Assembly (NCBI GenBank): GCA_963787255.1 | Contig: CAWBCJ010000029.1 | Span: forward strand, 704,001-768,000 | Length of the DNA stretch: 64,000 nucleotides | Direction of reading: 5' to 3' | Source: Methanobacteriota archaeon | GTDB taxonomy: Archaea > Methanobacteriota > Methanobacteria > Methanobacteriales > Methanobacteriaceae | Made by a program: the position numbers and the translations under genes | Notes under the pieces: model-generated | What the model saw: the letters and a program-made list of their open reading frames with translations, nothing else | Told to the model about the DNA's origin: nothing | Database searches by the model: none | Shown: piece after piece, positions 1-61,696 of the stretch | Position numbering within the stretch: the first letter of the stretch is position 1 | How the letters are laid out: each line of letters opens with the position of its first letter

Positions 1-710
1 GAACGAGTAAAAGAAGACATAGAAATGGTAATGTTAAGAGATCCGGCTGCAAGAAGCAAGTTAGAAATATTTTTTACATATCCTGGACTTCACGCCATAT
101 GGCTTTATAAAATAGCTAACTGGTTATGGATTCGCAATCATCATTTTTACCGGTGGCTTAATTTCGGCTATTACTCGCTTTTTTACAGGAATAGAGATAC
201 ATCCTGGAGCAAAAATAGGAAGAAGAGTATTCATCGACCACGGAATGGGTGTCGTAATTGGAGAAACTGCAGAAGTTGGAGATGATGTTTTAATTTATCA
301 GGGTGTTGTTCTGGGTGGAACAAGCCTTGGAAAGGAAAAAAAGGCACCCTACCATTGGAAGTGGGGTTGTAATAGGTTCTGGAGCTAAAGTTATTGGTAA
401 TATTGAAATAGGAGACTGCTCGAAGATAGGAGCAGGTTCTGTAGTCTTAAAATCAGCTCCAATGGGGTCTACAGTTGTTGGAATTCCTGGACGAAATGTA
501 AAAGAAGAGCGTAAATGCGCTATAGATCTGGATCATGGAGAGTTACCAGATCCTGTTGCAGAAGTGATTAAACTTATTTTAGACCGCCAAGATGAAATGG
601 AAAGCCAGATAAGAGCATTAGGAATATCAACATCTACCATAAAAATGAATGAACTTTTTGAGAGAAAATCAGAAATTGAAGAAATATTCTCAGAAGGTGC
701 AGGCATATAA
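1..710 (+). CDS. cysE: Serine O-acetyltransferase; 5' end outside window, two apparent frameshifts (~147, ~329)
   Basis: Stitched frames give [58 protein letters not shown], typical of CysE hexapeptide-repeat acetyltransferases. Confidence 0.9.
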
Positions 711-843
711 TATCATTTTTTTATTTTATTAGTAATTATATTAGCCTTAAAATTACATTTTAAGTTCATAAATTAGCTTTAAAACATAAATAAACAGTAA
801 TAAACTAAAATTTAATAAAATAATGTAAGCAAAAAAATATAAG

Positions 844-867
844 TTAATATAACACTAGTTATATTAA
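844..867. promoter_or_regulatory. Palindromic operator TTAATATAAC-acta-GTTATATTAA upstream of the HTH regulator
   Basis: Perfect 10-bp inverted arms; core TAAC-N4-GTTA at 850-861 matches motif repeated upstream of sulfur genes. Confidence 0.75.
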
Positions 868-966
868 TTCAATTTAAAGAGTTTATTTAAATTTTACAAA
901 TTCAGTTTAAAAGAGGGAAATAATCAATTGATAACATTTAAATTTCCAAATTATAATTAAACGGGC

Positions 967-1404
967 GTGATAGAAGTGAGACCACCATGTGAAATAGTTG
1001 TATGGTACGTAATTCCAAGTATACGGTCTGAATTGGCTAAAGAATTACTTAATTTAGGTATGAAACAAAAACAAATTTCTGAACTGCTGGATATTACTCA
1101 ACCTGCAGTATCACAGTATATAAGTGATAAAAGGGGACACGGAATTAAATTTGATGAAAATACTCAAAACATGATCAAAACTTTTGCAAGAGATTTAATG
1201 GAACAAAATCTGGAACAAGGGAGATGTAATACGCGAATATGTGAGATATGCAAGCACGTTAAAGCAGAAGAGGTTGTATGTCAACTGCATAAAGAAAAAG
1301 ATAACATTCCTGCAGGTTGTAATGCATGTATGGGATCAAAAAGGAATATAGATACCTGGATTACTGTATCTAATGGGTTCTTTTCTATTTATCCTCTAAA
1401 TTGA
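967..1404 (+). CDS. Cys-rich HTH transcriptional regulator (COG2522-like); true stop may be 1373 (..DYCI*) if the 3' end is frameshifted
   Basis: PPCE N-terminus, XRE-like HTH (MKQKQISELLDITQPAVSQYI), C-terminal CEIC..CQLH..CNAC cluster. Confidence 0.8.
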   Translation: MIEVRPPCEIVVWYVIPSIRSELAKELLNLGMKQKQISELLDITQPAVSQYISDKRGHGIKFDENTQNMIKTFARDLMEQNLEQGRCNTRICEICKHVKAEEVVCQLHKEKDNIPAGCNACMGSKRNIDTWITVSNGFFSIYPLN

Positions 1405-2768
1405 TGCCTAATATCTCTTAATCTGCTTCTTATTTCATCTGCAAGCTCATAATTCTTATTTTCACGGAGCTTTTCCCTTACATCAACCAGAATATTGACT
1501 AATTCATCATTGCGAATCTCCTTTGCAGGATTCAACTGAAAAATTAAGTCCCAAAATATCTCCGAATTCATTAAGTAATTCTTTTATTTCTTTAAATACA
1601 TTTTTAGAGATATTTTCTTCACTTATTCCTTTATTTATTTCTCTTATGAAATTAAAAAGTGCTGAAAGTGCAATAGGTGTATTAAAATCATTATCCATTG
1701 CATCCAAGAATTCATTTTTGGTATTTTCCAGCATTTTAAGGTATTCATTATTAGAATCACTATTTTTAGTTATATCCATTTCAAGGAATTCATCAACAGT
1801 TTCCATTAATTTATAAATTCTTTTCAAGCTATTCTGTGACTGCTGTAGAGCTTCATCGCTGAAGTCAATTGGACTTCTGTAATGAGTGGAAAGAACAAAA
1901 AATCTAAAGACCTGCGGGTCATATTCAGTGAGTAATTCTTCAATTGTAATAAAATTTCCAAGTGATTTGGACATTTTCTCCCCGCTGACATTTAAAAAGC
2001 CCGTATGCATCCAGTATTTAACCATTGGCTTTTTACCTGTTGCAGATTCCATCTGCGCGATTTCTGCCTCATGATGCGGGAAAATAAGATCTAATCCTCC
2101 ACCGTGAATGTCAAATTGGCCTCCAAAATAGGTTTCAGATATTGCAGTGTCTTCAATGTGCCATCCCGGTCTTCCATCGTCCCCATGGAGAAGCCCATGA
2201 TGGTTTGTCATCTCTCTTTTTCCAGAGTGCAAAATCTCCAGGATTTCTTTTTGTAGTATCTGGATTAACTCGATGAACATTTAGGTCTTCAATATTTCTA
2301 TTTGAGAGCTTTCCAAAGTCTTCAAAACGAGATTCATCAAAATAAATGCCAGTTGGAGGTTTCATAGGCAAAACTTTTCTTTATCAATGTTTGAATTTGA
2401 TTAATAATTTCGTTAAGGTGTTCCAGTGCCCTTGCATAATAATTAACGTTAGTTACACCTAATAATTCCATATCATGGAAATAGAGTTCTTCAAATTCCT
2501 TAGCAAGTTTTAATGGTTCAACACCAAGTTCATTTGCTCTTTTAATGATTTTATCGTCAATATCAGTGATATTTTGTAAATAAAAAATGCTGTACCCTTT
2601 ATATTTTAGATATCTTGCAATAATATCAAAAGCAATATAGGTTCTTCCATGACCAATATGTGATTTATCGTAAACTGTTGGCCCACATACAAACATTTTT
2701 ATTCTGTTTTCGTTTATAGGCGTGAATTCTTCCTTTTTACGGGTCATTGTATTGTATACTTTTATCAT
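1385..2768 (-). CDS. cysS: Cysteine--tRNA ligase, split by about four frameshifts
   Basis: Consecutive ORFs give CGPTVYD..HIGH, DFALWK, SPWG..GRPGWHIE, DIHGGGLDLIFPHHE, KMSKS, ADEIR..L; restored frame ends GINLEDK* at 1385. Confidence 0.92.
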
Positions 2769-3031
2769 AGGGCATCAAACTCGAAATTACTTAGAATTTC
2801 TTAAATTTGTTATAATCATCTTATATATGAAAATTAATATTGAAGTTGGATTTATATTCTTGTATTTTTAAAAGATGGTCAATTTTTATAATAAACTACA
2901 TTTGTTCAGTTTTTAAGATAAGATTTATTATAATAGATTATAATTAAATTAATTTAGAAAAATATCTAATTATTATTGATTATTTTCTCCTTCTGCAGCG
3001 AACAAACGAATTTTGTGAGCGAGGACTTTTT

Positions 3032-3065
3032 TGATCAATCCTTTTTTTCAAGGAAAAAAGGTTGA
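3032..3065. repeat. Hairpin element TGATCAA(T)CCTTT..AAAGGTTGA abutting the tRNA 3' end
   Basis: Inverted repeat; a related copy lies at 6408-6429 on the opposite strand. Confidence 0.55.
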
Positions 3066-3066
3066 G

Positions 3067-3137
3067 GGCCGAGATTGGGATTTGAACCCAAGTATCATGG
3101 TTTGCAGCCATGCACCTCGCCTCTCGGTCATCTCGGC
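3067..3137 (-). tRNA. tRNA-Cys(GCA), intronless, CCA not encoded
   Basis: GCCGAGA/TCTCGGC acceptor stem, ACC/GGT D stem, CATGG-CTGCAAA-CCATG anticodon arm, TTGGG-TTCAAAT-CCCAA T arm. Confidence 0.93.
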
Positions 3138-3167
3138 AAATATATTTAATTGCGTTAGTTACTAAGT

Positions 3168-3185
3168 TAACAATTGTTATATAAA
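3168..3185 (-). promoter_or_regulatory. tRNA-Cys promoter: TATA box (TTTATATA) with operator TAACAATTGTTA immediately downstream
   Basis: Perfect 12-bp palindrome at 3168-3179 overlapping the downstream edge of the minus-strand TATA box at 3178-3185. Confidence 0.75.
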
Positions 3186-3332
3186 TACTTTGCTCCACTT
3201 GATCATTATTGTGTAACTTATCATAGATTTATTTTTAGATAATACTGTATTTACAAGAATGTTAGATAAAAACGGTTTTTAATTGTAGAAACATCACTCG
3301 TAAACTTTAAATAAGAAGAAAGTAGTTAAATA

Positions 3333-3350
3333 TTATAACAATTGTTATAA
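3333..3350. promoter_or_regulatory. Perfect 18-bp palindromic operator TTATAACAATTGTTATAA upstream of metY
   Basis: Exact palindrome about 20 bp downstream of TTTAAATA (3306-3313), i.e. near the expected transcription start. Confidence 0.8.
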
Positions 3351-3502
3351 AAAATATGTTTATAAATTTTCATAGATTCAAACTTGAAATACTTATTTAC
3401 ATCTTCAAATACAAAATTGGGCAGTATAGAGCGATTTTAGGCTTCATTTAGAATCTATAGGTTATAGAATGCCAATAAAAACAAATTTATTGGAGGAATT
3501 AA

Positions 3503-4810
3503 ATGACAGAAGAAAAAAAGAAAGAATATGGATTAAGCACACTTGGATTACACGTAGGACAGGAAGAAGCATGCCCTGCAACAGGAGCAAGGGCAGTACC
3601 TATCTACCAAACATCATCATATGTTTTCAATGATGCAGAACATGCGGCAAATCTTTTTGCCTTAAAAGAATTTGGGAATATTTACACCCGTATAATGAAC
3701 CCTACAAATGATGTTTTTGAAAAAAGAATAGCTGCAGTTGAGGGAGGAAATGGAGCTTTAGCAGTGGCTTCTGGTCAAGCTGCAAACACCTATGCATTGT
3801 TAAACCTCAGTTTACCCGGTGATGAAATAGTTTCTGCAAATAACCTTTATGGTGGAACATATCAATTATTTAATTACACTTTTCCAGAATTAGGGCGAAA
3901 AGTGAATTTTGTAGAATCAACTGATCTTAAGGCAATTAAAAATGCAATTACAGACAAAACAAAAGCAATTTTCGCTGAATCAATAGGTAACCCTAAGTTA
4001 GATATACCTGATTACAAAGGAATAGCAGAAATTGCTCATAATGCAGGAATTCCTTTTGTAGTTGATAATACAACAGGAGTAGGGCTTGTAAAACCTATAG
4101 AACACGGAGCAGATATAACAACACTTTCTGCAACAAAATTCATTGGAGGACATGGTACATCCATTGGCGGGGTAATTGTTGATTCTGGAAACTTTAATTG
4201 GGGTAATGGTAATTTCCCTATTTTAACTGACCCTGATCCAAGTTATCATGGCCTAAAATTCTGGGAAACATTCGGAGATTTCCCGGGACTTGGAAATGTT
4301 GCTTACATAATGAGAGCAAGAGTAAGGCTCCTTCGTGACATGGGGGCAGCTTTAAGTCCTTTCAATGGGTTCCTATTTTTACAGGGACTTGAAACACTGG
4401 ATTTAAGAGTTAAGAAACATTCAGAAAATGCATTTGAAGTTGCAAAATTCTTAAAAGATCACCCTTCAGTAAATTGGGTAACTTATCCCGGATTTGAAGA
4501 TGATCCGGCCCATGAACTAGCTTCTAAATATTTAAACGGAGGATACGGGGCTTTAATAGGATTTGGTATCAGAGGCGGACTTGAAGCCGGTAAAAAGTTC
4601 ATTGAAAATACTGAACTCTTATCCCATCTTGCAAACATTGGAGATGCAAAGAGTCTGGTTATTCACCCTGCTTCAACAACGCATCAACAGTTAACTCCCG
4701 AGCAACAGGCAGAAACAGGAGTTACAGAAGACTTTGTAAGGCTTTCCATTGGTCTTGAAAACGTTGAAGATATAATTGCAGATATAGATCAGGCATTATC
4801 TAAAATATAA
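3503..4810 (+). CDS. metY: O-acetylhomoserine/O-acetylserine sulfhydrylase
   Basis: [23 protein letters not shown]-lysine motif [41 protein letters not shown]. Confidence 0.95.
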
Positions 4811-4881
4811 CTGAAAAATTTTGATAGTCCAAAAATCTAATAATAAAACTGGACATATCCAATATTATGGGATTTAGAAAA

Positions 4882-6351
4882 ATGAAAAAGGAATCAGTTG
4901 GACTCGCTAAAACGCAGTACTATAATCTTTCTGAGGATTTAACACTGGAAGGTGGAGGTAAGCTTAAAGAAGCTACAATAGCCTATGAAACCTACGGTAA
5001 ATTAAATAAGGAAAAAAGTAATGCGATTTTAATCTGTCATGCGCTTTCGGGAGATGCTCACGTTGCTGGATGGCACGATGGAGACCGAAAACCCGGCTGG
5101 TGGGACAGTATAATCGGTCCCGGAAAATGTCTGGATACAGATAAGTATTTTATAATCTGTTCCAATGTTATTGGGGGCTGTAAAGGTTCTACTGGCCCTT
5201 CTTCAACTAATCCTGAAACTAATGAACCATATGGGCTTGATTTTCCAATTATAACCATTTCGGACATGGTTGATGCCCAAAAGAAGTTAATTGATCACCT
5301 TTCTATAAAACAGCTCTTTGCAATTGTGGGCGGATCAATGGGAGGAATGCAGGTACTTCAATGGTGCGTTTCTTATCCAGATATGGTAAAATTAGCTATT
5401 CCTATAGCTACGGCAGCTAATTCTGCCCCACAACAAATTGCTTTTAATGAAGTAGGTAGAAGGGCAATTATATCTGATCCAAAATGGAATGGTGGTTCTT
5501 ATTACTCTGGAGAAGTTCCTAAGGAGGGATTAGGCCTTGCCAGGATGATAGGGCATATTACATACCTTAGTTATGAGTCAATGTACCAGAAGTTCGGTAG
5601 AAGACTTCAGGATAAGGAAAAATACAGTTTTGACTTTTCACTTGATTTTCAGGTGGAAAGCTATCTCCACTATCAGGGAGAATCCTTTGTTAAAAGATTC
5701 GATGCTAATTCATATCTCTACATAACAAAAGCAATAGATTATTTCGACCTTACAAAGAATGGGTCTCTTTCTGAAGGATTTGAAGATGTAGGGGCAAAAT
5801 TCCTGGTTATTTCAGTGGATTCTGACTGGCTTTACCCTCCAGCACAATCAAAAGAGATTGTAATGGCATTAACAGCAAATAACATAGATGTAAGCTATCA
5901 TGAGCTTAAATCTCCCTACGGGCATGATGCGTTCCTTCTAGAAGAGGGCCAATTAAATTACATTGTAAGTGGATTTCTCTCAGATATTCTCGTAGGGGAC
6001 GTAATGGCAACCGAAGTAACTAAAATCGGTGAAGAATCAAGTATGGATGAAGCAGCAAGGCTTATGCTTGAAAATAAAGTCACTCATTTACCTGTAGTTT
6101 CAGATGGTGATAAATTAATAGGAATTGTGACTGCATGGGATATTTCAAAGGCTGTTGCCTTAAAATGCAGTAAATTAGACGAAATAATGACGAAAGGAGT
6201 CATAGTGTCTAAACCTGACGACCAAATAGAAAAAGCAGCAGAGAAGATGAAAAAATACAATATTTCCTCCCTTCCTGTTGTGGATGATAATCAAAAAGTT
6301 ATTGGAATTATAACAACTGATCACATAAGCACGCTAATAACACGAGACTAA
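4882..6351 (+). CDS. metX: Homoserine O-acetyltransferase with C-terminal CBS pair
   Basis: [14 protein letters not shown] nucleophile, DWLYP, GHDAFL; C-terminal ~120 aa with two CBS repeats (HLPVV..GIVT; SLPVV..GIIT). Confidence 0.93.
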
Positions 6352-6395
6352 TGGAAAAAACTTATCATAATTAATGTTCATATTAAAATTAAGAA

Positions 6396-6454
6396 TTTAT
6401 GAGGATGCAACCTTTGGAAAGGTTGATCATTCATAAAGATTGATCATCCATAAA
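6396..6454. repeat. Hairpin CAACCTTT-GG-AAAGGTTG with extended stem, plus 15-bp direct repeat TTGATCATYCATAAA
   Basis: Inverted repeat 6408-6425; direct repeats 6423-6437 and 6440-6454. Confidence 0.55.
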
Positions 6455-6506
6455 ATTCGTTTATATATTAATTTACAGTAAAAAAAATAATTTATGAGGT
6501 GAAATA

Positions 6507-7679
6507 ATGATTTATATGGATCATTCAGCTACATCACCAGTTGATCCTAAAGTTTTTGAAGCAATGAAGCCTTATTTTGTGGAAGAATTTGGAAATGCTT
6601 CTACATTATACTCTCTTGGAAGAGATGCAAGAAAAGCAATGGAAAATGCAAGAGCACAGGTTGCTTCACTTATAGGAGCAAAAACTGAAGAAATTATTTT
6701 TACAAGTGGTGGAACAGAATCTGATAACATCGCCATTAAAGGTACAGCTTACAGATTAAAAGATAAAGGAAATCATATAGTAACAAGTGCTATAGAGCAC
6801 CCTGCAGTTGAAGAAACGTGTATATATTTAGAGAAAAATGGTTTTGAGGTCACATATCTTCCTGTTTACGAAGAAGGGATTGTTAGGGTATCTGATTTAG
6901 AAGATGCAATAACTGATAAAACTATTTTAATCACAATCATGCATGCAAACAACGAAATTGGTACAATCCAGCCAATAGCAGAAATTGGTAAAATAGCAAG
7001 GGAAAAAAAGATTTATTTCCACACAGATGCAGTACAGACTGTTGGAAAAATACCGGTAGTTGTTGAAGAATTAAATGTGGACATGCTTTCACTTTCAGCA
7101 CATAAAGTTTATGGCCCAAAGGGAATAGGTGCACTTTACGTTAAAAAAGGAGTTAGATTAGAGCCTATTGTCCACGGCGGTGGCCATGAAAAGGGTTTAA
7201 GGCCTGGAACAGAAAATGTATCAGGAATTGTTGGTCTAGGTAAAGCATGTGAAATTGCAGAAAAAAACCTCACCGATAATGCGAAATATATAACAAATTT
7301 GAGGAACAAATTAATAAAAGGAGTACTGGATTCGGTAGAACAATCTTATCTAAATGGACATCCCACAATGAGACTACCTAATAATGTAAACTTCAGATTT
7401 ACAGGTATCGAAGGTGAATCGCTGGTATTACACCTTGATTCTAAAGGAATAGCAGGTTCAACTGGTTCTGCATGTTCTTCAAAGAAATTAGAGCCATCAC
7501 ACGTTTTAACAGCAATTGGTCTGAAGGAAGTTGACGCTCATGGATCACTGCGTCTAACACTTGGAAAAGACAACACTGAAGAAGATGTTGAACATGCGAT
7601 AAAATCAATTCAAGAAGTGGTTGAAACCCTTAGAAAACTCTCTCCTCTCTGGTGTGCGGTGCCAGATACAAAAACATGA
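6507..7679 (+). CDS. iscS: Cysteine desulfurase (IscS/NifS type)
   Basis: IYMDHSAT, FTSGGTESDN, SAHKVYGPKG (PLP Lys), RPGTEN, STGSACSS (group I catalytic Cys). Confidence 0.95.
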   Translation: MIYMDHSATSPVDPKVFEAMKPYFVEEFGNASTLYSLGRDARKAMENARAQVASLIGAKTEEIIFTSGGTESDNIAIKGTAYRLKDKGNHIVTSAIEHPAVEETCIYLEKNGFEVTYLPVYEEGIVRVSDLEDAITDKTILITIMHANNEIGTIQPIAEIGKIAREKKIYFHTDAVQTVGKIPVVVEELNVDMLSLSAHKVYGPKGIGALYVKKGVRLEPIVHGGGHEKGLRPGTENVSGIVGLGKACEIAEKNLTDNAKYITNLRNKLIKGVLDSVEQSYLNGHPTMRLPNNVNFRFTGIEGESLVLHLDSKGIAGSTGSACSSKKLEPSHVLTAIGLKEVDAHGSLRLTLGKDNTEEDVEHAIKSIQEVVETLRKLSPLWCAVPDTKT

Positions 7680-7716
7680 AAATAAAGTTAATTTATGTGT
7701 ATTAGAGGTTGATTAT

Positions 7717-8127
7717 ATGTATAGTGATAAAGTAATGGAACATTTTCAAAACCCCCGGAATGTTGGCGAAATAGAAGATGCAGACGGTGTTGGAACAGTA
7801 GGAAACCCAACATGTGGAGATCTGATGACGATCTACATTAAAGTAAAAGACGACGTAATTGAAGATATTAAATTTAAAACCTTCGGCTGCGGCGCAGCCA
7901 TTGCAACAAGCAGTATGGTAACTGAAATGGCAATGGGAAAAACAGTAGATGAAGCCTTAAAAATCACAAGAAACGATGTCGCAGATAAACTGGAAGGGCT
8001 TCCACCAGTTAAAATGCACTGTTCTAACCTTGCAGCCGATGCATTACATGCTGCAATTGATAATTACAGGGGAAATAAAGGGGAAAAGACAGAAAAGCAT
8101 ATCTGTACAACGTGCGAAGAAGAATAA
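7717..8127 (+). CDS. iscU: Fe-S cluster scaffold IscU/NifU-like
   Basis: MYSDKVMEHFQNPRNVG, GNPTCGD, FGCGAAIA, LPPVKMHCS; GAGGT RBS before ATG at 7717. Confidence 0.95.
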   Translation: MYSDKVMEHFQNPRNVGEIEDADGVGTVGNPTCGDLMTIYIKVKDDVIEDIKFKTFGCGAAIATSSMVTEMAMGKTVDEALKITRNDVADKLEGLPPVKMHCSNLAADALHAAIDNYRGNKGEKTEKHICTTCEEE

Positions 8128-8142
8128 ATTCTTTTTTATAAT

Positions 8143-8580
8143 TTAAATTAATTCTATTTTATCTCCTTTTTTTATATTCCCGCTTTTAATTACTCTTGCA
8201 AATATGCCTTCTTTTGGCATTATGCAATCTCCAGCTTGATGATAGATTGCACAACGTGTATGGCACTCTTTACCAATTTGAGTAACTTCAAGAATTACTT
8301 CTTCTCCTACAAGTAGCTTTGTGCCTATTGGTAAAGCAGTTAGATCAATTCTTTCAGTAGTTAGATTTTCTGCAAAATCTCCAGGATTAACATTTAAGCC
8401 CATTTCACGCATTTTATCAATACTTTCTATTGCAAGTAAACTAATCTGTCTATGAGTGCTGGAATCTGCATGAGCATCGCCATCGATGCCGTAATTTTCT
8501 TCAATAACCGCCTTTTCAACGTTGTTTTTTTTAACTTGTTTTCTATCACTTGTAGAAATTGCTATTATTTTTGCAGTCAT
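8143..8580 (-). CDS. MOSC-domain protein
   Basis: GIDGDAHA, RQISLL, PGDFAENLT, EVTQIGKECH..CAIY..GDCIMPKEGIFARV. Confidence 0.85.
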   Translation of the reverse strand: MTAKIIAISTSDRKQVKKNNVEKAVIEENYGIDGDAHADSSTHRQISLLAIESIDKMREMGLNVNPGDFAENLTTERIDLTALPIGTKLLVGEEVILEVTQIGKECHTRCAIYHQAGDCIMPKEGIFARVIKSGNIKKGDKIELI

Positions 8581-8646
8581 AATATCTTTTTTTAAAATAA
8601 GAGTAAAATAGAAAAAAGAAGTAGGCATTGAATCCTTTCTTGTGTA

Positions 8647-9462
8647 TTATTTAGCTATTGCAGCTTCGCTGGTTTTAACTTTGCTGTTTTTAAGTTTCTC
8701 TATAATTAATTCAGCAACCTTTTCACCAGAAAGAAGCATTCCTCCGAAGGTAGGGCCCATTCTTGGCTGGCCGTAGGCGGTTGCAACTGACATTCCAGTC
8801 ACATAGAGTCCGGGGAAGATTTCTTTTGTATGTTCAACGATGGCATCTTCTGATTTTTCAACCCACATTCCGCCGAATCCTTTGATATCTACAAGCCCAC
8901 GCTCTTCTAAAGATTTTACAACAACTGCATCATGACCAGTTGCATCAATTACAATTTTTGACTCGATTGCAACGGGATCTACACATGTTATGGCTCTTGG
9001 AAGTGCAGATACTGGTGTCCAGTTCATAACAATACCATTTACGTGTTCATCTCTTAAAACGACGTCGTCGAATTTTGTCATATTAATTACTTTCGCACCT
9101 GCGTCCAGTGCGCTTGCTATGAGTTTTGAACATGCGTGAGGTCCGTCTGTGACATATAATCCGTCTTTTACTTTTTTGTATGGTACACCAATTTCGTCTA
9201 ATATCTTTTGACCTGGTTCTCTTACAGTTAGTTTGTTCATGAGGTAACCGCCTATCCAGAAACCTCCGCCTAGATAATTGTTGCTTTCTATAAGGAGTGT
9301 TTTTACGCCTGCTTCGCCGAGTTTTTTTGCAGCTACAAGTCCGCTGGGGCCTGCTCCAACGATAATTACGTCACTTTCTATATATTCTATAAATTCGTTT
9401 GCAAATCCTTCAACAATGGCTTTTGTCACATCTTTTTCTGATATCTTTGAAAAAATTTTCAT
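8647..9462 (-). CDS. thi4: Thiazole synthase Thi4 (Cys-type active site)
   Basis: [42 protein letters not shown]. Confidence 0.92.
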
Positions 9463-9484
9463 AGTTAATCCTCGTCAATTTACT

Positions 9485-9518
9485 TAACAATAGTTATATA
9501 ACAATTGTTACTTATAAA
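9485..9518 (-). promoter_or_regulatory. Tandem operators TAACAATAGTTA (9485-9496) and TAACAATTGTTA (9499-9510) directly downstream of the thi4 TATA box
   Basis: Two copies at 14-bp spacing; minus-strand TTTATAAG at 9511-9518. Confidence 0.8.
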
Positions 9519-9591
9519 TTTTATGAATGTTCCCTAAAAAACAAAAATAGATTATAAATAATAAAAAAAAGGTAAAAAGAGAAATTAGAGC

Positions 9592-10743
9592 TTATTTCGC
9601 TCTGGTTTTAATGGATGAAACAACTTCTTCAACCTTTTCTTCAAAATCAATATCTTCTAGAACATCTAAAAACTGTTCTAGATCTGCATTGGTTTCAGGA
9701 TATTTTGGAACTGCTGTACATCCTGGCGCTGGAAGAATTGATATTTCGAAGGTACCTATTTTTTTACCTATATTTTCAATTTCAATCTTATCCATACCAA
9801 TTAAAGGACTTAAAACAGGCATTTTGGTAACGTACCTTGTAGCAAGTAAATTAGGGAGTGTTTGGGAAGCTACCTGTCCTAAACTACTTCCATCAATAAT
9901 TGCAAGTGCTTCTTCCTTTTTAGCAATTTCTTCTGCTATACGGTACATTCCACTTTTACATAGGACGCAGGTAAGGCGAACAGGCGCATCTTCAACGCAT
10001 GATTTTAGATAATCTCCATAATCTGCCTCCAAAAACTTCAATTTTGATGGAGCGTATTCTGAGAGTTTTTCAATGATCTTAAGAACCTTTGCATTTGACC
10101 CTCCGGTGTAGGGATAGTTGTTAAAATGAAGAACTATGACTTCACATCCTCTTTTCATCATTAAAAAGGCAGATACAGGGGAATCAATACCTCCAGAAAC
10201 TAGAGCTATCACTTTTCCCTGAGTTCCCACTGGAAGGCCTCCAATTCCCTGTATTTTTTCATGGAAAATGTAAGTTTTATTTTCCCTTACCTCCACAAAG
10301 AATTTAAAATCAGGTTTACTTAAATTAACAGGAGCACCTGTTTTTTTAACGATTACTGAGCCGCAGAATCCGGCCATCTCCTGACTTGTAAATTCATGAG
10401 TTCCTACTCTTCTCCCACGCACTGCAAATGATTTAGTTCCATCAAATAATCCTTCAGAAATTAGATCATCAACATATTTGTTTAAAGTTTCTTCTATACT
10501 ATCAAAATCAGTTTCAGTAGAAACTGCAGGGCTGTATGAAACTACACCGATTGCCTTACTTAAAGCAGCATTTGCTTCTTTAAAATTCTTTGGAAATAAA
10601 AATATCCTTCCCTGATTAATCTCTATTTTGCAGTCAAGCTTTTTTTTAATGTTAGAAATGAGCTTATTTTCAAATCTACGCCTTACTTTTGGGCTTTTAA
10701 CTCCAATTTCTCCGTATCTTACAATTATTAAATCATAATCCAT
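9592..10743 (-). CDS. thiI: tRNA 4-thiouridine synthase ThiI (THUMP + PP-loop, no rhodanese domain)
   Basis: IVRYGEIGVKS, GGLPVGTQGK, SGGIDSPV, CVLC, SLGQVASQT, distal GCTAVP (three-Cys methanogen type). Confidence 0.93.
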   Translation of the reverse strand: MDYDLIIVRYGEIGVKSPKVRRRFENKLISNIKKKLDCKIEINQGRIFLFPKNFKEANAALSKAIGVVSYSPAVSTETDFDSIEETLNKYVDDLISEGLFDGTKSFAVRGRRVGTHEFTSQEMAGFCGSVIVKKTGAPVNLSKPDFKFFVEVRENKTYIFHEKIQGIGGLPVGTQGKVIALVSGGIDSPVSAFLMMKRGCEVIVLHFNNYPYTGGSNAKVLKIIEKLSEYAPSKLKFLEADYGDYLKSCVEDAPVRLTCVLCKSGMYRIAEEIAKKEEALAIIDGSSLGQVASQTLPNLLATRYVTKMPVLSPLIGMDKIEIENIGKKIGTFEISILPAPGCTAVPKYPETNADLEQFLDVLEDIDFEEKVEEVVSSIKTRAK

Positions 10744-10976
10744 TTAAATTTCTCCTTTGGATTTTTTAAAATTTCATTTATTTAATTTAACGATTTACTT
10801 TTTAGTTCGTAATATTCCATTTATTTTAGTAAAATGATGAAATGAGCATTAAAAATGTTATTGATATTATTAGTCAAATTTATGTGTTATATCTTGTAAA
10901 TAGTTGATATTTTTTGGGGGTAAATAAAAAAATAATAAGTAAAGGTTAATAACTTTTTAACCTTTTAGAATTGATT

Positions 10977-12110
10977 TTAAGCCCTCGAAAGTCCTTTGCT
11001 CAGGTCTTCAATTAAATCAGCAGAATCTTCCAGTCCAACGGAAAGCCTGATAAGGTCATCTGTAATTCCTGCACTTTTTCGAGCTTCTTCTTTCATTGAA
11101 GCGTGGCTCATTGTTGCGGCGTGTTCAACAAGTGAATCTGCTCCACCTAATGACTCCGCAAGGGAGAATATTTCTAAACTGTTTAGGAAATTTCTCAAAT
11201 CACCTTTGAGTTTAAATGATACTATTCCTCCAAATCCTTTCATCTGTTTTTTAGCTATTTCATGTCCTTTATGGGATGTAAGGCCGGGATAAAATACTTC
11301 ACTTACTTTAGGGTGTTCTAGTAGATATTCTGCTACTTCGTGAGCATTTGTGGCATGTTTGTCCATTCTAAGGGGGAGTGTTTTTAAACCTCTAAGCACT
11401 AACCATGAATCAAATGGTGCTGCATTTGTTCCAAGTCCGTTAAGGTTGAAATGAACTTTTTCTGCTAATTCTTCTGTTGTTGTTATTACAGCGCCGCCAA
11501 TAACATCTGAATGTCCGTTTATGTATTTAGTTGTTGAATGCATTACAATGTCGATTCCAAAGTCAATTGGCTTTAAAAAGTAGGGACTGGAGAATGTATT
11601 GTCGGTTACAGTAAGTAAATTGTGCTCTTTTGCGATTTTTGAGATTAACGCAAGGTCTGTAATGTTTAGAAGTGGATTTGAAGGTGTTTCTACCCATATG
11701 AGTTTAGTATTGGATTTTATTGCATTCTTTATTTTTTCCTCATCGTCAAGTCTTATAAATGTGAATTCAATTCCAAATTTGGTCATTATTTCTGAAAATA
11801 ACCTGAAAGTACCTCCGTAAAGGTCATCACATGCAATTACGTGATCACCAGCTTTTAGAATATGTATTACGGTTGTAATTGCGGCCATTCCACTTGAAAA
11901 TGCAAATCCTGCGTTTCCTCCTTCAAGATCTGCAAGGGCATCTTCCAGGGCGCTTCTTGTAGGATTACTTGTTCTTGAATAATCGTGCTTTTTGGGTTTT
12001 CTATAGTCATCAAAGATGAATGTTGACGTTTGCCAGATTGGTGTTGATATTGCACCGGTTGCAGGGCACGGCTGCCTGCCTGAGTGCACTGATTTTGTAT
12101 TAAACTTCAT
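10977..12110 (-). CDS. Cystathionine gamma-synthase/gamma-lyase family PLP enzyme
   Basis: YSRTSNPT, FSSGMAAI, ETPSNP, DNTF, HSTTKYINGHSDV, AESLGG, RLSVGLE. Confidence 0.9.
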   Translation of the reverse strand: MKFNTKSVHSGRQPCPATGAISTPIWQTSTFIFDDYRKPKKHDYSRTSNPTRSALEDALADLEGGNAGFAFSSGMAAITTVIHILKAGDHVIACDDLYGGTFRLFSEIMTKFGIEFTFIRLDDEEKIKNAIKSNTKLIWVETPSNPLLNITDLALISKIAKEHNLLTVTDNTFSSPYFLKPIDFGIDIVMHSTTKYINGHSDVIGGAVITTTEELAEKVHFNLNGLGTNAAPFDSWLVLRGLKTLPLRMDKHATNAHEVAEYLLEHPKVSEVFYPGLTSHKGHEIAKKQMKGFGGIVSFKLKGDLRNFLNSLEIFSLAESLGGADSLVEHAATMSHASMKEEARKSAGITDDLIRLSVGLEDSADLIEDLSKGLSRA

Positions 12111-12201
12111 ATTTTCCTCCTTATTCTATAAACATTAAGATTCAACTTTTAAAAAATTCGTATTTAACTCCTGTGGATTTTAAAAAAGCAACATGTTATA
12201 T

Positions 12202-12227
12202 TAACAATTGTTATATAACTATTGTTA
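12202..12227. promoter_or_regulatory. Tandem operators TAACAATTGTTA and TAACTATTGTTA upstream of the transsulfuration gene
   Basis: Copies at 12202-12213 and 12216-12227, same 14-bp spacing as at thi4; partial third copy at ~12189-12199. Confidence 0.8.
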
Positions 12228-12261
12228 TATGTTTTTCGGTTTTTAAACTCTAAATTAAATT

Positions 12262-13023
12262 TCATGACCTGTAAATTAATGCAACAAACCTTGAATAAAA
12301 CATAAGGATGTACGGTGCAATTACAAGTTGTGCTATTACAAAACCAATTATATTGACAGATTCAATTATTTCTTTTAATATAGGTCCCCCGATCACTACC
12401 ACGCCTAAAATTACAAAAAAGTATCCAATCAACAATCTTTTTAAACCTATCCTCATGATTTTTCTAGTTATCTCAATAAAACTAAAGGCTTGTTTAAAAT
12501 GACCGCCTTTAGACGCCATGTGAGGTATTGCAACTGTAAATAGTACGTCTGCAATAAATCCTAAAAGAAATCCAATAATTAAAATTAAAATAAGAGTATC
12601 ATCCGGCAGAGCAGGCATTCCTATATTTATTTCAGTAAAAAAATCGTCTAAGATTGCAAGAAAGATTATTGCAGGTATTAAAAAGTATATAAATCCAATA
12701 ATTATTTCATTTAGGCCGTGTTTAAACATATGAATAAAATTATTAAATTTTGGGAGTGTTTTAATTCCTAACAAGCTTTTTTCAATGACATTGAAAGTAT
12801 AACCTGCTTCTAGGATTGTAAAAAGGAGTACTATTATAAAAAATAGCAATATGGCTAATAATAAGCCAACATCACCAAAAAAATCGTCCAGAAAAAAGTA
12901 AAAATCATTGTACTGACTGAACAAAAAACTGCTAATTAAAATCATCAATCCCAACAAAAAAAACTGTTTTAATCCAGAAAATGGATATTTTGCTGCATCA
13001 TACAGGATTTCATATATTTTCAT
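12262..13023 (-). CDS. Membrane protein, DUF4013-like
   Basis: DAAKYP, GY..VI, LPKF..F..G pattern with several hydrophobic helices. Confidence 0.65.
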   Translation of the reverse strand: MKIYEILYDAAKYPFSGLKQFFLLGLMILISSFLFSQYNDFYFFLDDFFGDVGLLLAILLFFIIVLLFTILEAGYTFNVIEKSLLGIKTLPKFNNFIHMFKHGLNEIIIGFIYFLIPAIIFLAILDDFFTEINIGMPALPDDTLILILIIGFLLGFIADVLFTVAIPHMASKGGHFKQAFSFIEITRKIMRIGLKRLLIGYFFVILGVVVIGGPILKEIIESVNIIGFVIAQLVIAPYILMFYSRFVALIYRS

Positions 13024-51669: not shown

Positions 51670-52440
51670 TTAAATCTCAATATTTTCTACGTCCTCTAAA
51701 ACTTCCCCATTCCTTACTCTATCCCTTAAATTGAGCATTAACTCATCAATTTTGTTTAATTTTCTTGACATGAGTTTTTCTTTTTCGCTGGTGATTAAGA
51801 CATTTCGCATGCCTCCATTTTTCATGACAATTCTTTTATCGGTCATAAGGGCGAGTACGGGGTCATGTGTTACAACCATTACTATTTTCCCATGCCCTGC
51901 AAGCGCTTTTAGAGCATCATGCTTTCTTATACCTGCGTTTTCGATTTCATCAATAAGAACAATTGGAGAATTACTTATAATTGCCACGTCAGCTACCATT
52001 AGCGCTCTGGACTGTCCGCCGCTTAATATTGTGAGGTCGTGATCTTTTTTTATTGGCTCGCCGGTTAGAGTGTTTGCAAGGTCAACTACGGCATTAACAC
52101 ATTTGTTGCTTGCACCGCGGCATTTTGCATGGAGATTTAAAAAATCCCCCACGCTCATATCTGCTAAAAAATTCATGTTTTGAGAAAGCTGCGCAACCAT
52201 TTTCTTTCTGGGATTAGTCCGGTCATCGTAACTTGGTTCTTTGCCGTCTACAAGGATTTTTCTCCTTGAAAAGGTGTCTTCCTGTGCGAGTTGTTCAATA
52301 TCCGCTATAAGTGAGCTTTTACCACTTCCTGTAGGACCTACAACTCCGAAAATTTCTCCTTTTTTGACTATAACTTTCTCAACAGGTTCTTTGTCCCCTT
52401 GTTTGTCGTAACCGCCGAGAATGGTTATTTCTTCTATCAT
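51670..52440 (-). CDS. Orphan ABC-type ATPase
   Basis: [22 protein letters not shown]; no adjacent permease. Confidence 0.85.
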
Positions 52441-53213
52441 TAAAGGTCCACCTTTCCTAAAGTGTCTCCCCTAAGCCCTCGTCTCATTGTTTCAAGGGCA
52501 GTTACCTCTTCTGGAGCTATATTACCCAAATTAACATTTGCTCCAAATTTTAAAATTAAATACATCTGCTGATTTTTGAGAGGTGCTTCCCAAATCAGTT
52601 TTTTCCCATCTATTTTTGCGAGCGCTTCAAGTTCATCTTCTTTGACGTTTCCAGCACCATCATAAATACCAATATCTTTTCCGCCTTCGCGTGCTTCAAT
52701 TAGCACTCTGTCCGCTCCAGCATCTATGTCCAAATTAATCAGATCTACACGATCTTCTATATCCAGTTTACCATCTTCAAATGGATCTTTTTTTCCAACT
52801 TCTGAAATAACTAAAAATCCCTGTTCTTTTGCTTTGGAAATGGAAGCTATTCTATCTTCAGGAGATATATTTATAGAGCCATCTGATATTTCAACAGCTT
52901 TAAATCCTAATTTATCAGCTTCATTTAAGAATTCATCGAATTTATTTTTTAAATATGCAAGTTCAAAAAGTGTTCCGCCAGGATATGGGATCACATCATA
53001 GGACAAATACATTTCTGTTTTGTTTTTTATAAGATCTCTGTCATGAAGTGCGGAAGTACCCCATCCAAATTTAGCAAGATCAATAAATTCACCAGATACT
53101 TCCATTAAGTCGTTCACGGCATTTAAACCCATTCCTTTATCTAACATCATTGTTATTCCATTTTTACGAGGTTTAGAAATTCTATCTGGTGCAATAAAGT
53201 TAAATGCTTTCAT
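52440..53213 (-). CDS. comA: Phosphosulfolactate synthase (coenzyme M biosynthesis)
   Basis: [62 protein letters not shown]. Confidence 0.93.
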
Positions 53214-53303: not shown

Positions 53304-53323
53304 TATATAAAATTTGTTATATA
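53304..53323. promoter_or_regulatory. Degenerate operator copy TATA-TAAAATTTGTTA-TATA between comA and the divergent gene
   Basis: One arm mismatch to TAAC-N4-GTTA; overlaps TATA-like sequence. Confidence 0.4.
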
Positions 53324-53383: not shown

Positions 53384-53947
53384 ATGGAAAAAACCATTAG
53401 CTATTTTGAAAATAAAGGCGCAGAAAATACGGATAAAGTTATAGAGCTTGTAAAGAAAAGAAGAGAAGAATTAGGTGTAAAAACCATATTGGTTGCATCT
53501 GTATCTGGAAAAACTGCTTTAAAATTGCGTGAAGCAATGGAAGATGTTAACCTAGTTAGTATAACTCACCATGCAGGGTTTAAAGAGAAAGGAAAGCTTG
53601 AAATAGTTCCAGAATACGTACAAAAACTTAATGATAATGATATAACGTTATATGCAGGATCTCATGCACTTAGCGGTGTAGGTAGAGGAATTTCCAATAA
53701 ATTTGGAGGAGTAACACCTGTTGAAATAATAGCTGCAACTCTCCGTCTATTTGGTCAGGGAGTTAAAGTTTGTGTCGAGATATCTATCATGGCGGCAGAT
53801 GCGGGGTTAATTCCAGTAGATGAAGAAATAATTGCTGTTGGGGGAACCGCGTGGGGTGCAGACGCTGCAGTGGTCTTAAAAGCGGCTAATATGAATAATT
53901 TCTTTGACCTTCAAATTAAAGAAATTATTGCAATGCCTCGGCAATAA
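53384..53947 (+). CDS. Pyruvate-kinase C-terminal-like alpha/beta protein (MTH1675-like)
   Basis: YF...[42 protein letters not shown]. Confidence 0.8.
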
Positions 53948-55511: not shown

Positions 55512-55697
55512 ATGAATTTGAATAAGGAAACTACCTCCCAGTTTATAAGACAGTGCAGGAGAGTTCTGCACGTATCTAAAAAGCCAGATAGAGAAGAATT
55601 TATAAATGTAGCAAAAATAACGGGAATTGGAATTATTATAATAGGCGTTATAGGCTTTATAATAAGTCTAATTGCTCAACTGTTAGGTATGGTATAA
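55512..55697 (+). CDS. secE: Protein translocase SecE/Sec61-gamma
   Basis: RRVL..SKKPDREEF + single TM helix; conserved position. Confidence 0.92.
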   Translation: MNLNKETTSQFIRQCRRVLHVSKKPDREEFINVAKITGIGIIIIGVIGFIISLIAQLLGMV

Positions 55698-61676: not shown

Positions 61677-61696
61677 TTTATATAACAATAGTTATA
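61677..61696 (+). promoter_or_regulatory. TATA box overlapped by operator TATAACAATAGTTATA upstream of the marker-16 gene
   Basis: TTTATATA 61677-61684; core TAACAATAGTTA 61683-61694, identical to the copy at 9485. Confidence 0.78.

Follow-up and report, generated by a model that had tools for sequence, protein, structure and literature searches.

A small helix-turn-helix protein with cysteine clusters as candidate self-regulated repressor of sulfur assimilation in Methanobacteriaceae

Control of sulfur assimilation, of cysteine and homocysteine synthesis and of Fe-S supply is essentially undescribed in methanogens, and for the genes concerned our literature search on regulator, regulon and motif found neither a methanogen regulator nor an operator. 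The question arises at one end of a stretch of 64,000 nucleotides from a Methanobacteriota archaeon (Methanobacteriaceae; GCA_963787255.1, CAWBCJ010000029.1, positions 704,001 to 768,000, forward strand), hereafter the window. Here a small cysteine-rich helix-turn-helix (HTH) protein, which we call REG (encoded at 976..1404), lies as earlier noted between cysE upstream and cysS downstream, behind a long palindrome. Does REG control the sulfur genes around it, and its own expression? Reasoning from sequence, we consider it probable that REG is a small archaeal self-regulated repressor of a sulfur-assimilation regulon; if so, it would be the first candidate sulfur/cysteine regulator for methanogens.

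The ORF listing places REG at 967..1404 on the forward strand (145 aa). Its homologs, 680 at E<=1e-3, are typically 126-132 aa long and, when aligned, begin with MRPPCE, so the real start of REG is the in-frame GTG at 976, which is preceded by the ribosome-binding site GGCGTGAT. Together they make up a broad family of archaeal HTH/Cys proteins of ~120 aa, with 438 clusters at E<=1e-10. HTH_3 (PF01381) is the one Pfam match of REG, and a marginal one (E 7.8e-5; 23.1 bits against a cut-off of 23; residues 24-56), while many of the homologs carry PF01381 as a precomputed domain. The family profile matched a lambda-repressor-like chain in the PDB at 1.6e-6, over the HTH part only, and PDB sequence searches with REG matched nothing outside this part. 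NCBIfam has no family for REG, and no Pfam model covers its Cys/His module; the protein ends about 10-25 residues past the last CxxC. Scanning 20 other neighbouring ORFs (303-20810) revealed no DNA-binding domain, in agreement with the earlier statement that REG is the only DNA-binding regulator of the sulfur island.

Table 1. Coordinates of REG, of candidate operators and of neighbouring features in the window (residues of REG in 967-numbering).
Feature	Position	Strand	Remarks
cysE (serine acetyltransferase, Hexapep)	1..710	+	open at window start; two frames; ends ...EGAGI
A-rich/TATA-like stretch aaaaaaatataag	831..843	+	directly upstream of palindrome; candidate BRE/TATA box of the presumed REG promoter
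Candidate REG operator TTAATATAAC-ACTA-GTTATATTAA	844..867	.	10+4+10 perfect palindrome; 16-bp core 848-863; PWM 21.0 bits
REG ORF as assembled	976..1404	+	GTG start; 142 codons; in frame with listed GTG 967
N-terminal Cys of PPCE	988..990	+	C8; C5 in homolog numbering
Helix-turn-helix of REG	1036..1134	+	residues 24-56 of the ORF starting at 967; recognition helix ITQPAVSQYISDKRG
+1/-1 indel pair	1218..1236	+	GRCNTR where relatives read GD(I/M/V)IRR; four residues before C92 scrambled
Cys/His module	1240..1329	+	C92, C95 (CEIC), C105, H108 (CQLH), C118, C121 (CNAC)
D-Y-C-I-stop (GAT TAC TGT ATC TAA)	1359..1373	+	conserved clade end; out of frame as assembled, ORF reaches 1404
cysS (cysteinyl-tRNA synthetase, tRNA-synt_1e/DALR)	1389..2768	-	convergent with REG; several frames
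tRNA-Cys (GCA)	3066..3137	-	upstream of cysS
Operator-like GTTAAC-AATT-GTTATA	3166..3181	.	29 nt upstream of tRNA-Cys; overlaps minus-strand TTTATATA box; PWM 17.0 bits
Candidate operator upstream of metY	3334..3349	.	PWM 24.2 bits; metY (O-acetylhomoserine sulfhydrylase) 3503-4810, then metX, iscS, iscU
Two candidate operators 14 bp apart upstream of Thi4	9483..9512	.	PWM 18.3 and 18.4 bits; Thi4 8647-9462, minus strand
Two candidate operators 14 bp apart upstream of Cys_Met_Meta_PP enzyme	12200..12229	.	PWM 15.2 and 23.9 bits; gene 10977-12110, minus strand
One-mismatch site, comA/PK_C-domain gene interval	53306..53321	.	PWM 15.8 bits; comA (phosphosulfolactate synthase) 52440-53213, minus strand; PK_C-domain gene 53384-53947
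Candidate operator before HcyBio gene	61681..61696	.	site centre 41 bp before gene; includes TTTATATA; PWM 25.9 bits; HcyBio homocysteine-biosynthesis gene 61730-62989

The palindrome with 10-bp perfect arms, described before as lying ~100 bp upstream of REG, ends 108 bp before GTG 976. It is the single window match to its own 24-mer pattern with up to three mismatches (shuffle mean 0.04; at least one match in 4 of 100 shuffles). In an alignment of five species, ATATAAC-N4-GTTATAT before REG is invariant, the A-rich stretch upstream of it is partly conserved and the flanks diverge. The shorter pattern TATAAC-N4-GTTATA occurs in the window four times perfectly and twice with one mismatch, against an expected mean of 0.40, and six occurrences were reached in none of 100 shuffles. 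Using a PWM for the 16-bp core TATAAC-nATn-GTTATA that was built excluding the window's own sites, we obtained nine matches, all intergenic and all adjoining sulfur genes, compared with 0-2 in 20 shuffles. A one-mismatch site at 55637, before Spt5/NusG, scored under the PWM threshold, and we discounted it as a chance match. The arrangement of tRNA-Cys upstream of cysS is found in 13 related loci examined as well, and an operator-like site precedes tRNA-Cys in 13 of 14 sequences examined.

We extended the analysis to 79 related loci, all from Methanobacteriaceae (1,217,879 bases) and chosen, via a narrower REG alignment, for encoding REG. They contain 175 perfect and 60 one-mismatch palindromes, against 0-2 and 9-23 in ten block shuffles, counts that describe motif abundance around REG in REG-selected loci and not genome-wide co-occurrence. 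Almost all of the sites (236 of 241) are intergenic, the central A-T is present in 92%/91% of them, and they often form arrays with 14 or 28 bp between operators. The genes behind them are predominantly cysK (54 loci), ThiS (25), REG itself (22), metY/CGS-type (13) and PNPOx (12), followed by NMT1/SsuA-like (10), NifX-like (10), nitrogenase-like (8), Thi4 (6), cysE (6), cysS (5) and EamA (4) genes; NifU, NifS and ParA/NUBPL are also among the targets. The palindrome is thus supported as the mark of a conserved sulfur regulon. No site with up to one mismatch was found in 15 of the 79 loci, several of which are short contigs.

The recurring unit is operator-cysK-cysE-REG, with REG as third gene. 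A same-strand cysE lies directly 5' of REG in 64 of the 79 loci, and cysK plus cysE do so in 55. Within an automatically set search range, 49 of 54 loci have a site near the cysK start; four of the five cysK loci without a near site have truncated cysK ORFs with sites further upstream, and the remaining locus (L033) has one-mismatch sites only. As for a REG-proximal site, 55 loci have 120 bp or more between REG and the gene before it, and in 30 of them a PWM site directly precedes REG; this is so in 0 of 24 short-spacer loci, where REG follows close behind cysE. These REG-proximal sites have atypical spacers (ACTA, ATAT, ATAG, CCAT and others). When the 34 gene clusters present in at least eight loci were considered, a DNA-binding domain was seen in REG only (17 unannotated clusters were scanned, three of them giving no match). 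The conserved unit, REG's own site, the invariant palindrome and the lack of a rival DNA-binding gene support by association the earlier proposal that REG is the cognate, autoregulated regulator.

On the protein side, the peptide DITQPAVSQY is near-identical across the 79 loci (one has EITQPAVSQY) and SDKRG varies at a few positions, the loci having been partly selected on this peptide. The half-site centres of the 16-bp palindrome are one helical turn (10 bp) apart, and tandem REG-REG proteins occur naturally; palindromic operators and tandem proteins both fit, and suggest, a dimeric REG. The six Methanosphaera-type loci L071-L076 differ in that a near-identical recognition helix comes with no palindrome within the 5-20 kb examined; a conserved TATAAC half-site alone precedes REG there. 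Such loci, and the unusual spacers of the REG-proximal sites, would be expected if REG were a regulon member and not the binder, an unlinked transcription factor recognising the palindrome and REG controlling something else. We regard this as distinctly unlikely, since REG is the sole recurring DNA-binding gene in the 79 neighbourhoods, its placement right after the core operon, and after a conserved site of its own, is what one usually sees for a local repressor that controls itself, and a 16-bp palindrome with half-sites spaced in this way fits a dimeric HTH protein.

The position of the sites within promoters is informative about the direction of control. In cysK promoters the first operator follows a tttataaa-type box at a distance of ~10-15 bp, all operators falling between this TATA-like box and the ribosome-binding site; the order of TATA-like stretch and palindrome before REG is alike. 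Operators just downstream of TATA-like boxes suggest a repressor. As part of the region between TATA-like box and start codon may be transcribed, the palindromes might instead work as hairpins of RNA or DNA, whether as leader structures or as promoter elements, and 844-867 is predicted to fold as RNA at -9.1 kcal/mol (z = -4.9). Such a role is scarcely credible, since the sites conserve sequence and not pairing: the arms TATAAC/GTTATA are fixed in 175 sites, as is the central A-T, the variant left arms TATATC and TATGTC have no compensation in the right arm, and the usual core stem would have six A/T-rich pairs only. Rfam matches in 1-13000 are confined to tRNA-Cys, which leaves no riboswitch as a competing explanation.

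The computation itself shows the motif and its enrichment, the target genes, the position within promoters and the linkage to REG. Binding of the motif by REG, repression, and the manner in which REG would sense sulfur are what we infer. In the proposed mechanism, REG would be built of an N-terminal strand bearing Cys5, an XRE-type HTH, a connecting helix and a C-terminal Cys/His metal module. A dimer would bind the 16-bp palindrome TATAAC-nATn-GTTATA and, held next to the TATA-like box, would block recruitment of RNA polymerase. The predicted controlled set would comprise cysK-cysE-REG, metY-metX-iscS-iscU, a second Cys/Met PLP enzyme, HcyBio and Thi4, together with ThiS-like carriers, SsuA-like binding proteins, nitrogenase-like reductases, probably tRNA-Cys/cysS, and REG itself. 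Nitrogenase-like reductases, NifX-like and SsuA-like binding proteins, tRNA-Cys/cysS and possibly comA are unexpected among the predicted members. The analysis yields a candidate repressor, a sharply defined 16-bp operator and a putative regulon of roughly 20 gene families in Methanobacterium and Methanobrevibacter, and the operator-repressor pair might be put to use in methanogen genetics to switch expression in response to sulfur.

Which signal REG would answer to is addressed by its Cys/His residues. The PPCE and CEIC..CQLH..CNAC residues reported earlier are all present in REG and invariant in 13 aligned close sequences; C8, C92 and C95 in 967-numbering correspond to C5, C89 and C92 in homolog numbering, which we use below. 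The C-x2-H...C-x2-C part is nearly universal in the family, whereas the three-Cys subset C5/C89/C92 is gained or lost as a separate unit. C5 and C89 co-vary perfectly (both in 42 sequences, neither in 49, mixed in 0), a tail Cys is present in 20 of the 42 members of the C5-bearing subfamily versus 5 of 49 in the other, and the tandem REG-REG forms retain C5/CxxC only. The C5/C89/C92 set could be a sensor. We propose, with low confidence, that DNA binding would depend on this labile site holding a metal or an Fe-S/persulfide species, the site often being completed by a Cys or His of the C-terminal tail and its occupancy reflecting sulfide or cysteine supply, and that the near-universal C-x2-H...C-x2-C site would be structural.

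Comparison with fused relatives bears on the same point. Proteins carrying a ThiN domain (PF10120) align with REG over ~124 residues at 34% identity (pairwise E 1e-19), and in the alignment PPCE and each of the six other Cys/His positions coincide. Retention of the full set in relatives that have their own ligand domain favours, and suggests for REG, a structural metal site within the DNA-binding module. The CxxC/CxxH...CxxC knuckle spacing is typical of zinc ribbons. It is therefore quite possible, if somewhat short of an even chance, that REG represses as proposed and that its Cys/His residues hold structural zinc only; the signal would then be a small metabolite bound at the dimer in the manner of MetJ or TrpR, with cysteine, O-acetylserine, homocysteine, SAM and sulfide as candidates, or else a partner protein, perhaps CysK, to which the C-terminal tail considered below would point. 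The gain and loss of C5/C89/C92 as a unit, along with Cys-rich tails, is at odds with this, as it looks accessory and not core structural. The same Cys/His module is present in one relative that is fused to a NifS-type cysteine desulfurase, which again suggests a structural metal site and also links the family to cysteine. A further link to cysteine is seen in Methanosphaera, where REG adjoins a glutamate-cysteine ligase gene. An ORF combining a REG-like N-terminus with a DNA ligase (P0320, on a 1.5-kb contig) was set aside as probably chimeric or mis-called.

Besides the Fe-S/thiol site, CysK docking is the second mechanism that we raise for REG. The C-terminal DYCI is invariant in 17 members of the window's clade, behind a variable linker. 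A plant SAT peptide that binds OASS ends in ...DYVI. S. aureus CysE ends in ...DDYII and CymR in ...YMFYI, and the terminal Ile of these tails enters the active site of CysK. By analogy, the REG tail resembles known CysK-docking tails and may dock into CysK in the window's clade. REG ends differ in other clades with the same regulon, so that docking cannot be the general mechanism. The EGAGI tail of CysE is found in 47 loci.

Both mechanisms could be joined in a two-input switch with a labile Cys4 site (C5, C89, C92 and the DYCI Cys) and a CysK-docking tail that is freed when the site is emptied, a scheme that we hold to be highly unlikely as a whole. With plentiful sulfide or cysteine, the Cys4 site would hold an Fe-S or persulfide-derived species and the tail would be tucked away; sulfur shortage would empty the site, and D-Y-C-I-COOH would enter the CysK active site, altering REG's hold on the operator. 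The REG tail would compete with the EGAGI tail of CysE and with O-acetylserine for CysK. If true, this would be a convergent archaeal counterpart of CymR-CysK on a ThiR-type module, not described for archaea, in which CysK, acting in trans, would do what ThiN or NifS domains do in cis in the fused relatives.

These features place REG relative to several known systems. An N-terminal DNA-binding module followed by ThiN is the architecture of the archaeal thiamine regulator ThiR. ThiR is reported to repress, through palindromic operators, a cofactor pathway that also involves Thi4. The whole REG module aligns with the N-termini of the ThiN-fused proteins, which have a ThiR-like layout and may be orthologs of ThiR. 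REG has no match to ThiN at E up to 1 in the window and hence no thiamine-phosphate sensor, and its predicted regulon is one of Cys, Met, Fe-S and sulfur salvage, with Thi4 as a minor member (6 loci; two sites in the window). The earlier note had called COG2522-like proteins uncharacterised, a description that needs qualifying: we found nothing in print on the stand-alone family, but its whole ~120-aa module shares homology with the N-terminal segment of regulators fused to ThiN. Our proposal gives this wide archaeal HTH/Cys family a candidate role tied to the ThiR architecture; ThiR is called a central regulator in PMC12029414, which cites Rodionov et al. 2017 and Hwang et al. 2017.

Among bacterial systems, CymR of Bacillus and Staphylococcus, the Rrf2-family master repressor of cysteine metabolism that works with CysK, represses cysteine/sulfur genes through palindromic operators, a mode of control that the operator-to-target map given here would fit for REG. 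REG's clade-specific tail can be set beside the Ile-ending CymR and CysE tails that insert into CysK, and cysK and cysE are the immediate neighbours of REG. The fold of REG is unrelated, an XRE-type HTH with a Cys module and no Rrf2 family among its Pfam/NCBIfam matches at E up to 1, and the tail occurs in a single clade, the window copy having it out of frame. IscR, the [2Fe-2S] Rrf2 repressor of the isc operon, is comparable in that REG is likewise a small candidate repressor with iscS-iscU in its predicted regulon. Its cluster is reportedly ligated by Cys3His, and the Cys3His set of REG (C-x2-H...C-x2-C) is comparable in composition; fold and ligand spacing differ, and the predicted REG regulon is centred on cysteine/methionine synthesis and not on Fe-S assembly. 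SurR of Pyrococcus and Thermococcus is said to be a winged-helix, ArsR-type protein with a CxxC redox switch answering elemental sulfur and to control hydrogenase and sulfur-reduction genes. REG would share with it the role of an archaeal regulator of sulfur-related genes with a Cys-based switch near the N-terminus, but no sequence relation to REG appeared in any search made.

The copy of REG in the window itself carries frame disturbances. Set against four related species, it shows one additional G around its start, the internal indel pair alters the residues before the Cys/His module, and a frameshift puts the conserved DYCI-stop end out of frame; cysE is split by two single-base insertions. 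Within 1-2800, some nine single-base indels, most of them insertions, disturb the reading frames (cysE 149 and 325; REG 973, 1221-1235 and 1353/1357; cysS 1409, 1509, 2176 and 2358). The next genes metY, metX, iscS, iscU, MOSC and Thi4 are full-length as in the related locus L013, which has an intact Methanobacterium oryzae copy of REG. Decay of the cysE-REG-cysS stretch in this genome, with REG a pseudogene or crippled, would account for such a pattern, yet we think it rather unlikely. The window opens inside cysE, possibly at an error-rich contig end, and losing CysRS would be a serious handicap for a cell with no alternative route. All operators are intact, the REG frame is back 14 bp after the internal shift, and the DNA of the DYCI-stop is unchanged.

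A GTDB genome scan with the family alignment of REG, the small Cys-rich HTH protein encoded at 976-1404, returned 274 relatives, and the best 80 of these 274 matches gave 79 loci, all from Methanobacteriaceae. Over the 1,217,879 bases of these loci, 175 perfect copies of the palindromic core TATAAC-N4-GTTATA were counted along with 60 that deviate at a single position, compared to 0-2 and 9-23, respectively, in ten block shuffles. When the window is included, 236 of 241 sites are intergenic. The extended motif reads wTATAAC-nATn-GTTATAw, with the central A and T found in 92% and 91% of sites, respectively. Neighbouring sites are spaced by 14 bp in 29 cases and by 28 bp in 8 cases, and adjacent palindromes in such arrays share their terminal TA, as in both operator pairs of the window and in many loci. 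This strict phase suggests cooperative binding of at least two dimers on different faces of the helix.

Clustering of the downstream genes in the 79 loci followed by Pfam scanning identified as targets cysK (54 loci), ThiS-like genes (25), REG itself (22), metY/CGS-type (13), PNPOx-like (12), NMT1/SsuA-like and NifX-like (10 each), nitrogenase component-1-like (8), Thi4 and cysE (6 each), cysS (5), and EamA (4), in addition to NifU, NifS, ParA/NUBPL, DUF362, and ferredoxin-type genes. As the loci were chosen for encoding REG, these counts describe the regulon around REG rather than genome-wide co-occurrence. A conserved sulfur regulon marked by the palindrome is strongly supported; neither this operator nor this regulator was found described in the mostly open-access literature searched. 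A nitrogenase-like cluster with two Oxidored_nitro genes was seen just upstream of cysK in six loci (L001, L003, L006, L014, L020, and L021; about 3500-7700 in each), where it has its own operator, often TATAAC-GATC-GTTATA; both loci scanned for it, L020 and L021, also carry a NifH-type gene. This cluster and the NifX-like and SsuA-like targets may form a sulfur-salvage reductase system under sulfur control.

In the window, TATAAC-N4-GTTATA is present in four perfect and two one-mismatch copies (expected mean 0.40), and none of 100 shuffles reached six. A weight matrix built from the related loci only (threshold of at least 12 bits) detected nine sites, every one intergenic, where 20 shuffles gave 0-2. 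The copy upstream of REG that the earlier note had described is indeed present at 844-867 as TTAATATAAC-ACTA-GTTATATTAA, a pattern with a single match within 64 kb (expected 0.04).

Features of the window: REG, its neighbouring genes, and the operator sites
Feature	Position	Strand	Location or description	Basis
REG ORF	967..1404	+	145 aa as called	ORF listing
cysE pieces	1-285 and 303-710		two ORF fragments	
cysS pieces	1389-2768	-	several ORF fragments	
Operator site	846		before REG	weight matrix
Operator-like site	3164		before tRNA-Cys/cysS	weight matrix
Operator site	3332		before metY-metX-iscS-iscU	weight matrix
Operator pair	9481 and 9495 (span 9483-9512)		before Thi4	weight matrix
Operator pair	12198 and 12212 (span 12200-12229)		before second Cys/Met PLP enzyme	weight matrix
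Operator site	53304 (53306-53321)		between comA and PK_C-domain gene	one mismatch, 15.8 bits
Operator site	61679		before HcyBio homocysteine gene	weight matrix

The first, sulfite-using step of coenzyme M synthesis is catalysed by the comA product, and the operator beside this gene hints that the pathway is tied to the sulfur regulon. At 8647-10743, Thi4 (thiazole synthase) and ThiI, with the double operator between them, lie beside a MOSC-domain gene and iscS-iscU; Thi4/sulfur-relay clustering of this kind is discussed in bioRxiv 10.1101/2025.09.23.678117.

In cysK promoters, the first operator follows a tttataaa-type box at a distance of about 10-15 bp; one or more operators occupy the whole stretch from this box to the ribosome-binding site, and operator centres cluster 40-60 bp before the ATG. 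The same layout precedes REG, with a box at 831-843 and the operator at 844-867, and is also seen before tRNA-Cys. A protein that binds immediately downstream of an archaeal TATA box typically keeps polymerase from being recruited, and the position of the operators just downstream of TATA-like boxes therefore makes REG a putative repressor. That the palindromes act as RNA hairpins rather than protein operators is unlikely: although the 844-867 copy, if transcribed, would fold at -9.1 kcal/mol, it is sequence rather than pairing that is kept, and the variant left arms TATATC and TATGTC show no compensation in the right arm. An Rfam search of 1-13000 found tRNA-Cys and no other RNA family. In all examined loci of this arrangement (window 3066-3181; L001-L014, L018, L054, and L077), the tRNA gene immediately precedes cysS. 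An operator-like GTTAAC-rATT-GTTATA overlaps its TTTATATA box (minus strand in the window); this site precedes the gene by 19-38 nt in 12 of the 14 sequences and by 103 nt in L006, and is degenerate in L011. Its presence may place the tRNA gene and its synthetase in a sulfur regulon.

The usual gene order is [operator, operator] cysK cysE [operator] REG, followed in the window's clade by cysS(-), tRNA-Cys(-), [operator], metY, metX, and iscS. cysE is the immediate upstream neighbour of REG, in the same orientation, in 64 of the 79 loci, and cysK-cysE precede REG in this way in 55. Of 54 loci assessed with an automatic window, 49 have a site at the start of cysK; four of the remaining five have truncated cysK ORFs with sites farther upstream, and L033 has one-mismatch sites only. 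Where the spacer before REG is 120 bp or longer (55 loci), a site of at least 12 bits directly precedes the gene in 30; the 24 loci with a shorter spacer have none, and REG, being close behind cysE, is probably co-transcribed there. In an alignment of five species, ATATAAC-N4-GTTATAT upstream of REG is invariant while its flanks diverge. In line with the earlier note, REG is the only one with a DNA-binding domain among 34 gene clusters present in at least eight loci (17 of these, unannotated, were Pfam-scanned, and 3 gave no match). The cysK-cysE linkage and the site upstream of its own gene back the earlier note's reading of REG, the putative binder, as the autoregulated cognate regulator. 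An autoregulated repressor of the regulon is the best explanation for REG, and in our judgement a fairly probable one.

Against this reading, six Methanosphaera-type loci (L071-L076) encode a REG with a near-identical recognition helix but show no palindrome within the 5-20 kb examined; there, a conserved TATAACATTGTGAAAT block and then TATATATT precede REG, leaving the left half-site only. Also against it, no site with up to one mismatch was found in 15 of the 79 loci, several of them short contigs, and the REG-proximal sites have atypical spacers. One genome (contig DATN01000002.1, L061 and L067) has two REG paralogs, one in a cysK-cysE-REG unit and the other immediately behind a PNPOx-like gene (which elsewhere belongs to the regulon) and lacking a palindrome in the DNA examined.

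The REG ORF lies between the cysE pieces and the minus-strand cysS pieces, as described earlier. Since homologs (126-132 aa) open with MRPPCE, translation starts at GTG 976, in the same frame and behind GGCGTGAT. The sole Pfam match is a marginal HTH_3 (residues 24-56; 23.1 bits for a cut-off of 23), and an NCBIfam search found nothing specific. Compared to four related species, the window copy carries one additional G at its start codon and a +1/-1 indel pair just before C92 (GRCNTR versus GD(I/M/V)IRR), and a frame shift puts the conserved D-Y-C-I-stop end (1359-1373) out of frame. Within 1-2800, the frames of cysE, REG, and cysS are broken by about nine single-base indels, of which most are insertions and most lie outside homopolymers. 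The next ~9 kb, from metY to Thi4, contain full-length ORFs as in the closest locus, L013 of Methanobacterium oryzae (82.5% DNA identity). We prefer an error-rich contig end, because the window opens inside cysE, to the alternative of a recent true decay of the cysE-REG-cysS block.

All cysteines named earlier, C8 (PPCE), C92/C95, C105 with H108, and C118/C121, were recovered and are invariant in 13 close sequences; they correspond to C5, C89/C92, C102 with H105, and C115/C118 in homologs. An exhaustive search gave 1348 representative clusters at E<=1e-3, of which 438 reach E<=1e-10; most are ~120 aa long and align end to end, and Atlas look-alikes are archaeal (Methanobacteriota, Thermoproteota, Bathyarchaeota, and Nitrososphaerota). 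When 91 diverse members were aligned, C115 and C118 proved invariant, C102 is conserved in at least 90%, and most carry the exact C102-x2-H105...C115-x2-C118 set. C5 and C89 occur together in 42 members and are jointly missing from 49; none has just one of the two. Tails are longer in the C5-bearing subfamily and contain a Cys in 20 of 42 members (13 of 30 by eye without 12 close Methanobacterium rows) versus 5 of 49 in the other, and the natural tandem REG-REG proteins P0272, P0274, and P0133 (single-chain dimers) keep only the C5/CxxC cysteines. This joint gain and loss, the Cys-rich tails, and the tandem forms point to two putative ligand sites, a core Cys3His and an accessory three-Cys site. 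The latter would link the helix that follows the HTH with the N-terminus and would often be completed by a tail Cys or His. A PDB sequence search found no relative beyond the HTH. That the Cys cluster may be a sulfur sensor, as suggested earlier, is an attractive hypothesis, rivalled by a structural zinc combined with metabolite or CysK input.

In 17 sequences of the window's clade, a variable linker is followed by an invariant C-terminal tetrapeptide, D-Y-C-I. In 47 loci CysE terminates in EGAGI, and most of the remaining ones have some other G-I ending; such tails are of the classic CysK-docking type. A plant SAT peptide probing OASS ends in ...DYVI, and S. aureus CysE (...DDYII) and CymR (...YMFYI) both insert their C-terminal Ile into the CysK active site. 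By analogy with CymR, which recruits CysK through such a tail, REG might recruit CysK in trans. Other clades with the same regulon end in ...EADGC, ...HADHHHAGP, or ...HANTV, which argues against docking as a general mechanism, and the tail Cys of DYCI may be a plain metal ligand.

Proteins of 311-321 aa (P0321-P0326) combine a REG-like module, with all Cys/His in register and 34% identity over 124 residues, with ThiN (PF10120), the architecture of ThiR, the archaeal thiamine repressor. ThiR is called a central regulator in PMC12029414. In P0217 (506 aa), a REG-like module from the C5-less subfamily is joined to a cysteine desulfurase of the NifS type (527 bits, TIGR03402); whether this is a genuine fusion or the read-through of two abutting genes, it links the family to cysteine. 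These architectures argue in two directions: they tie the family to sulfur-containing metabolites, and they also show the Cys module to belong to a shared DNA-binding unit, with the signal usually coming from a C-terminal enzyme-like domain. In Methanosphaera-type loci, REG lies away from cysK/cysE, and in the one scanned (L073) a glutamate-cysteine ligase gene follows it.
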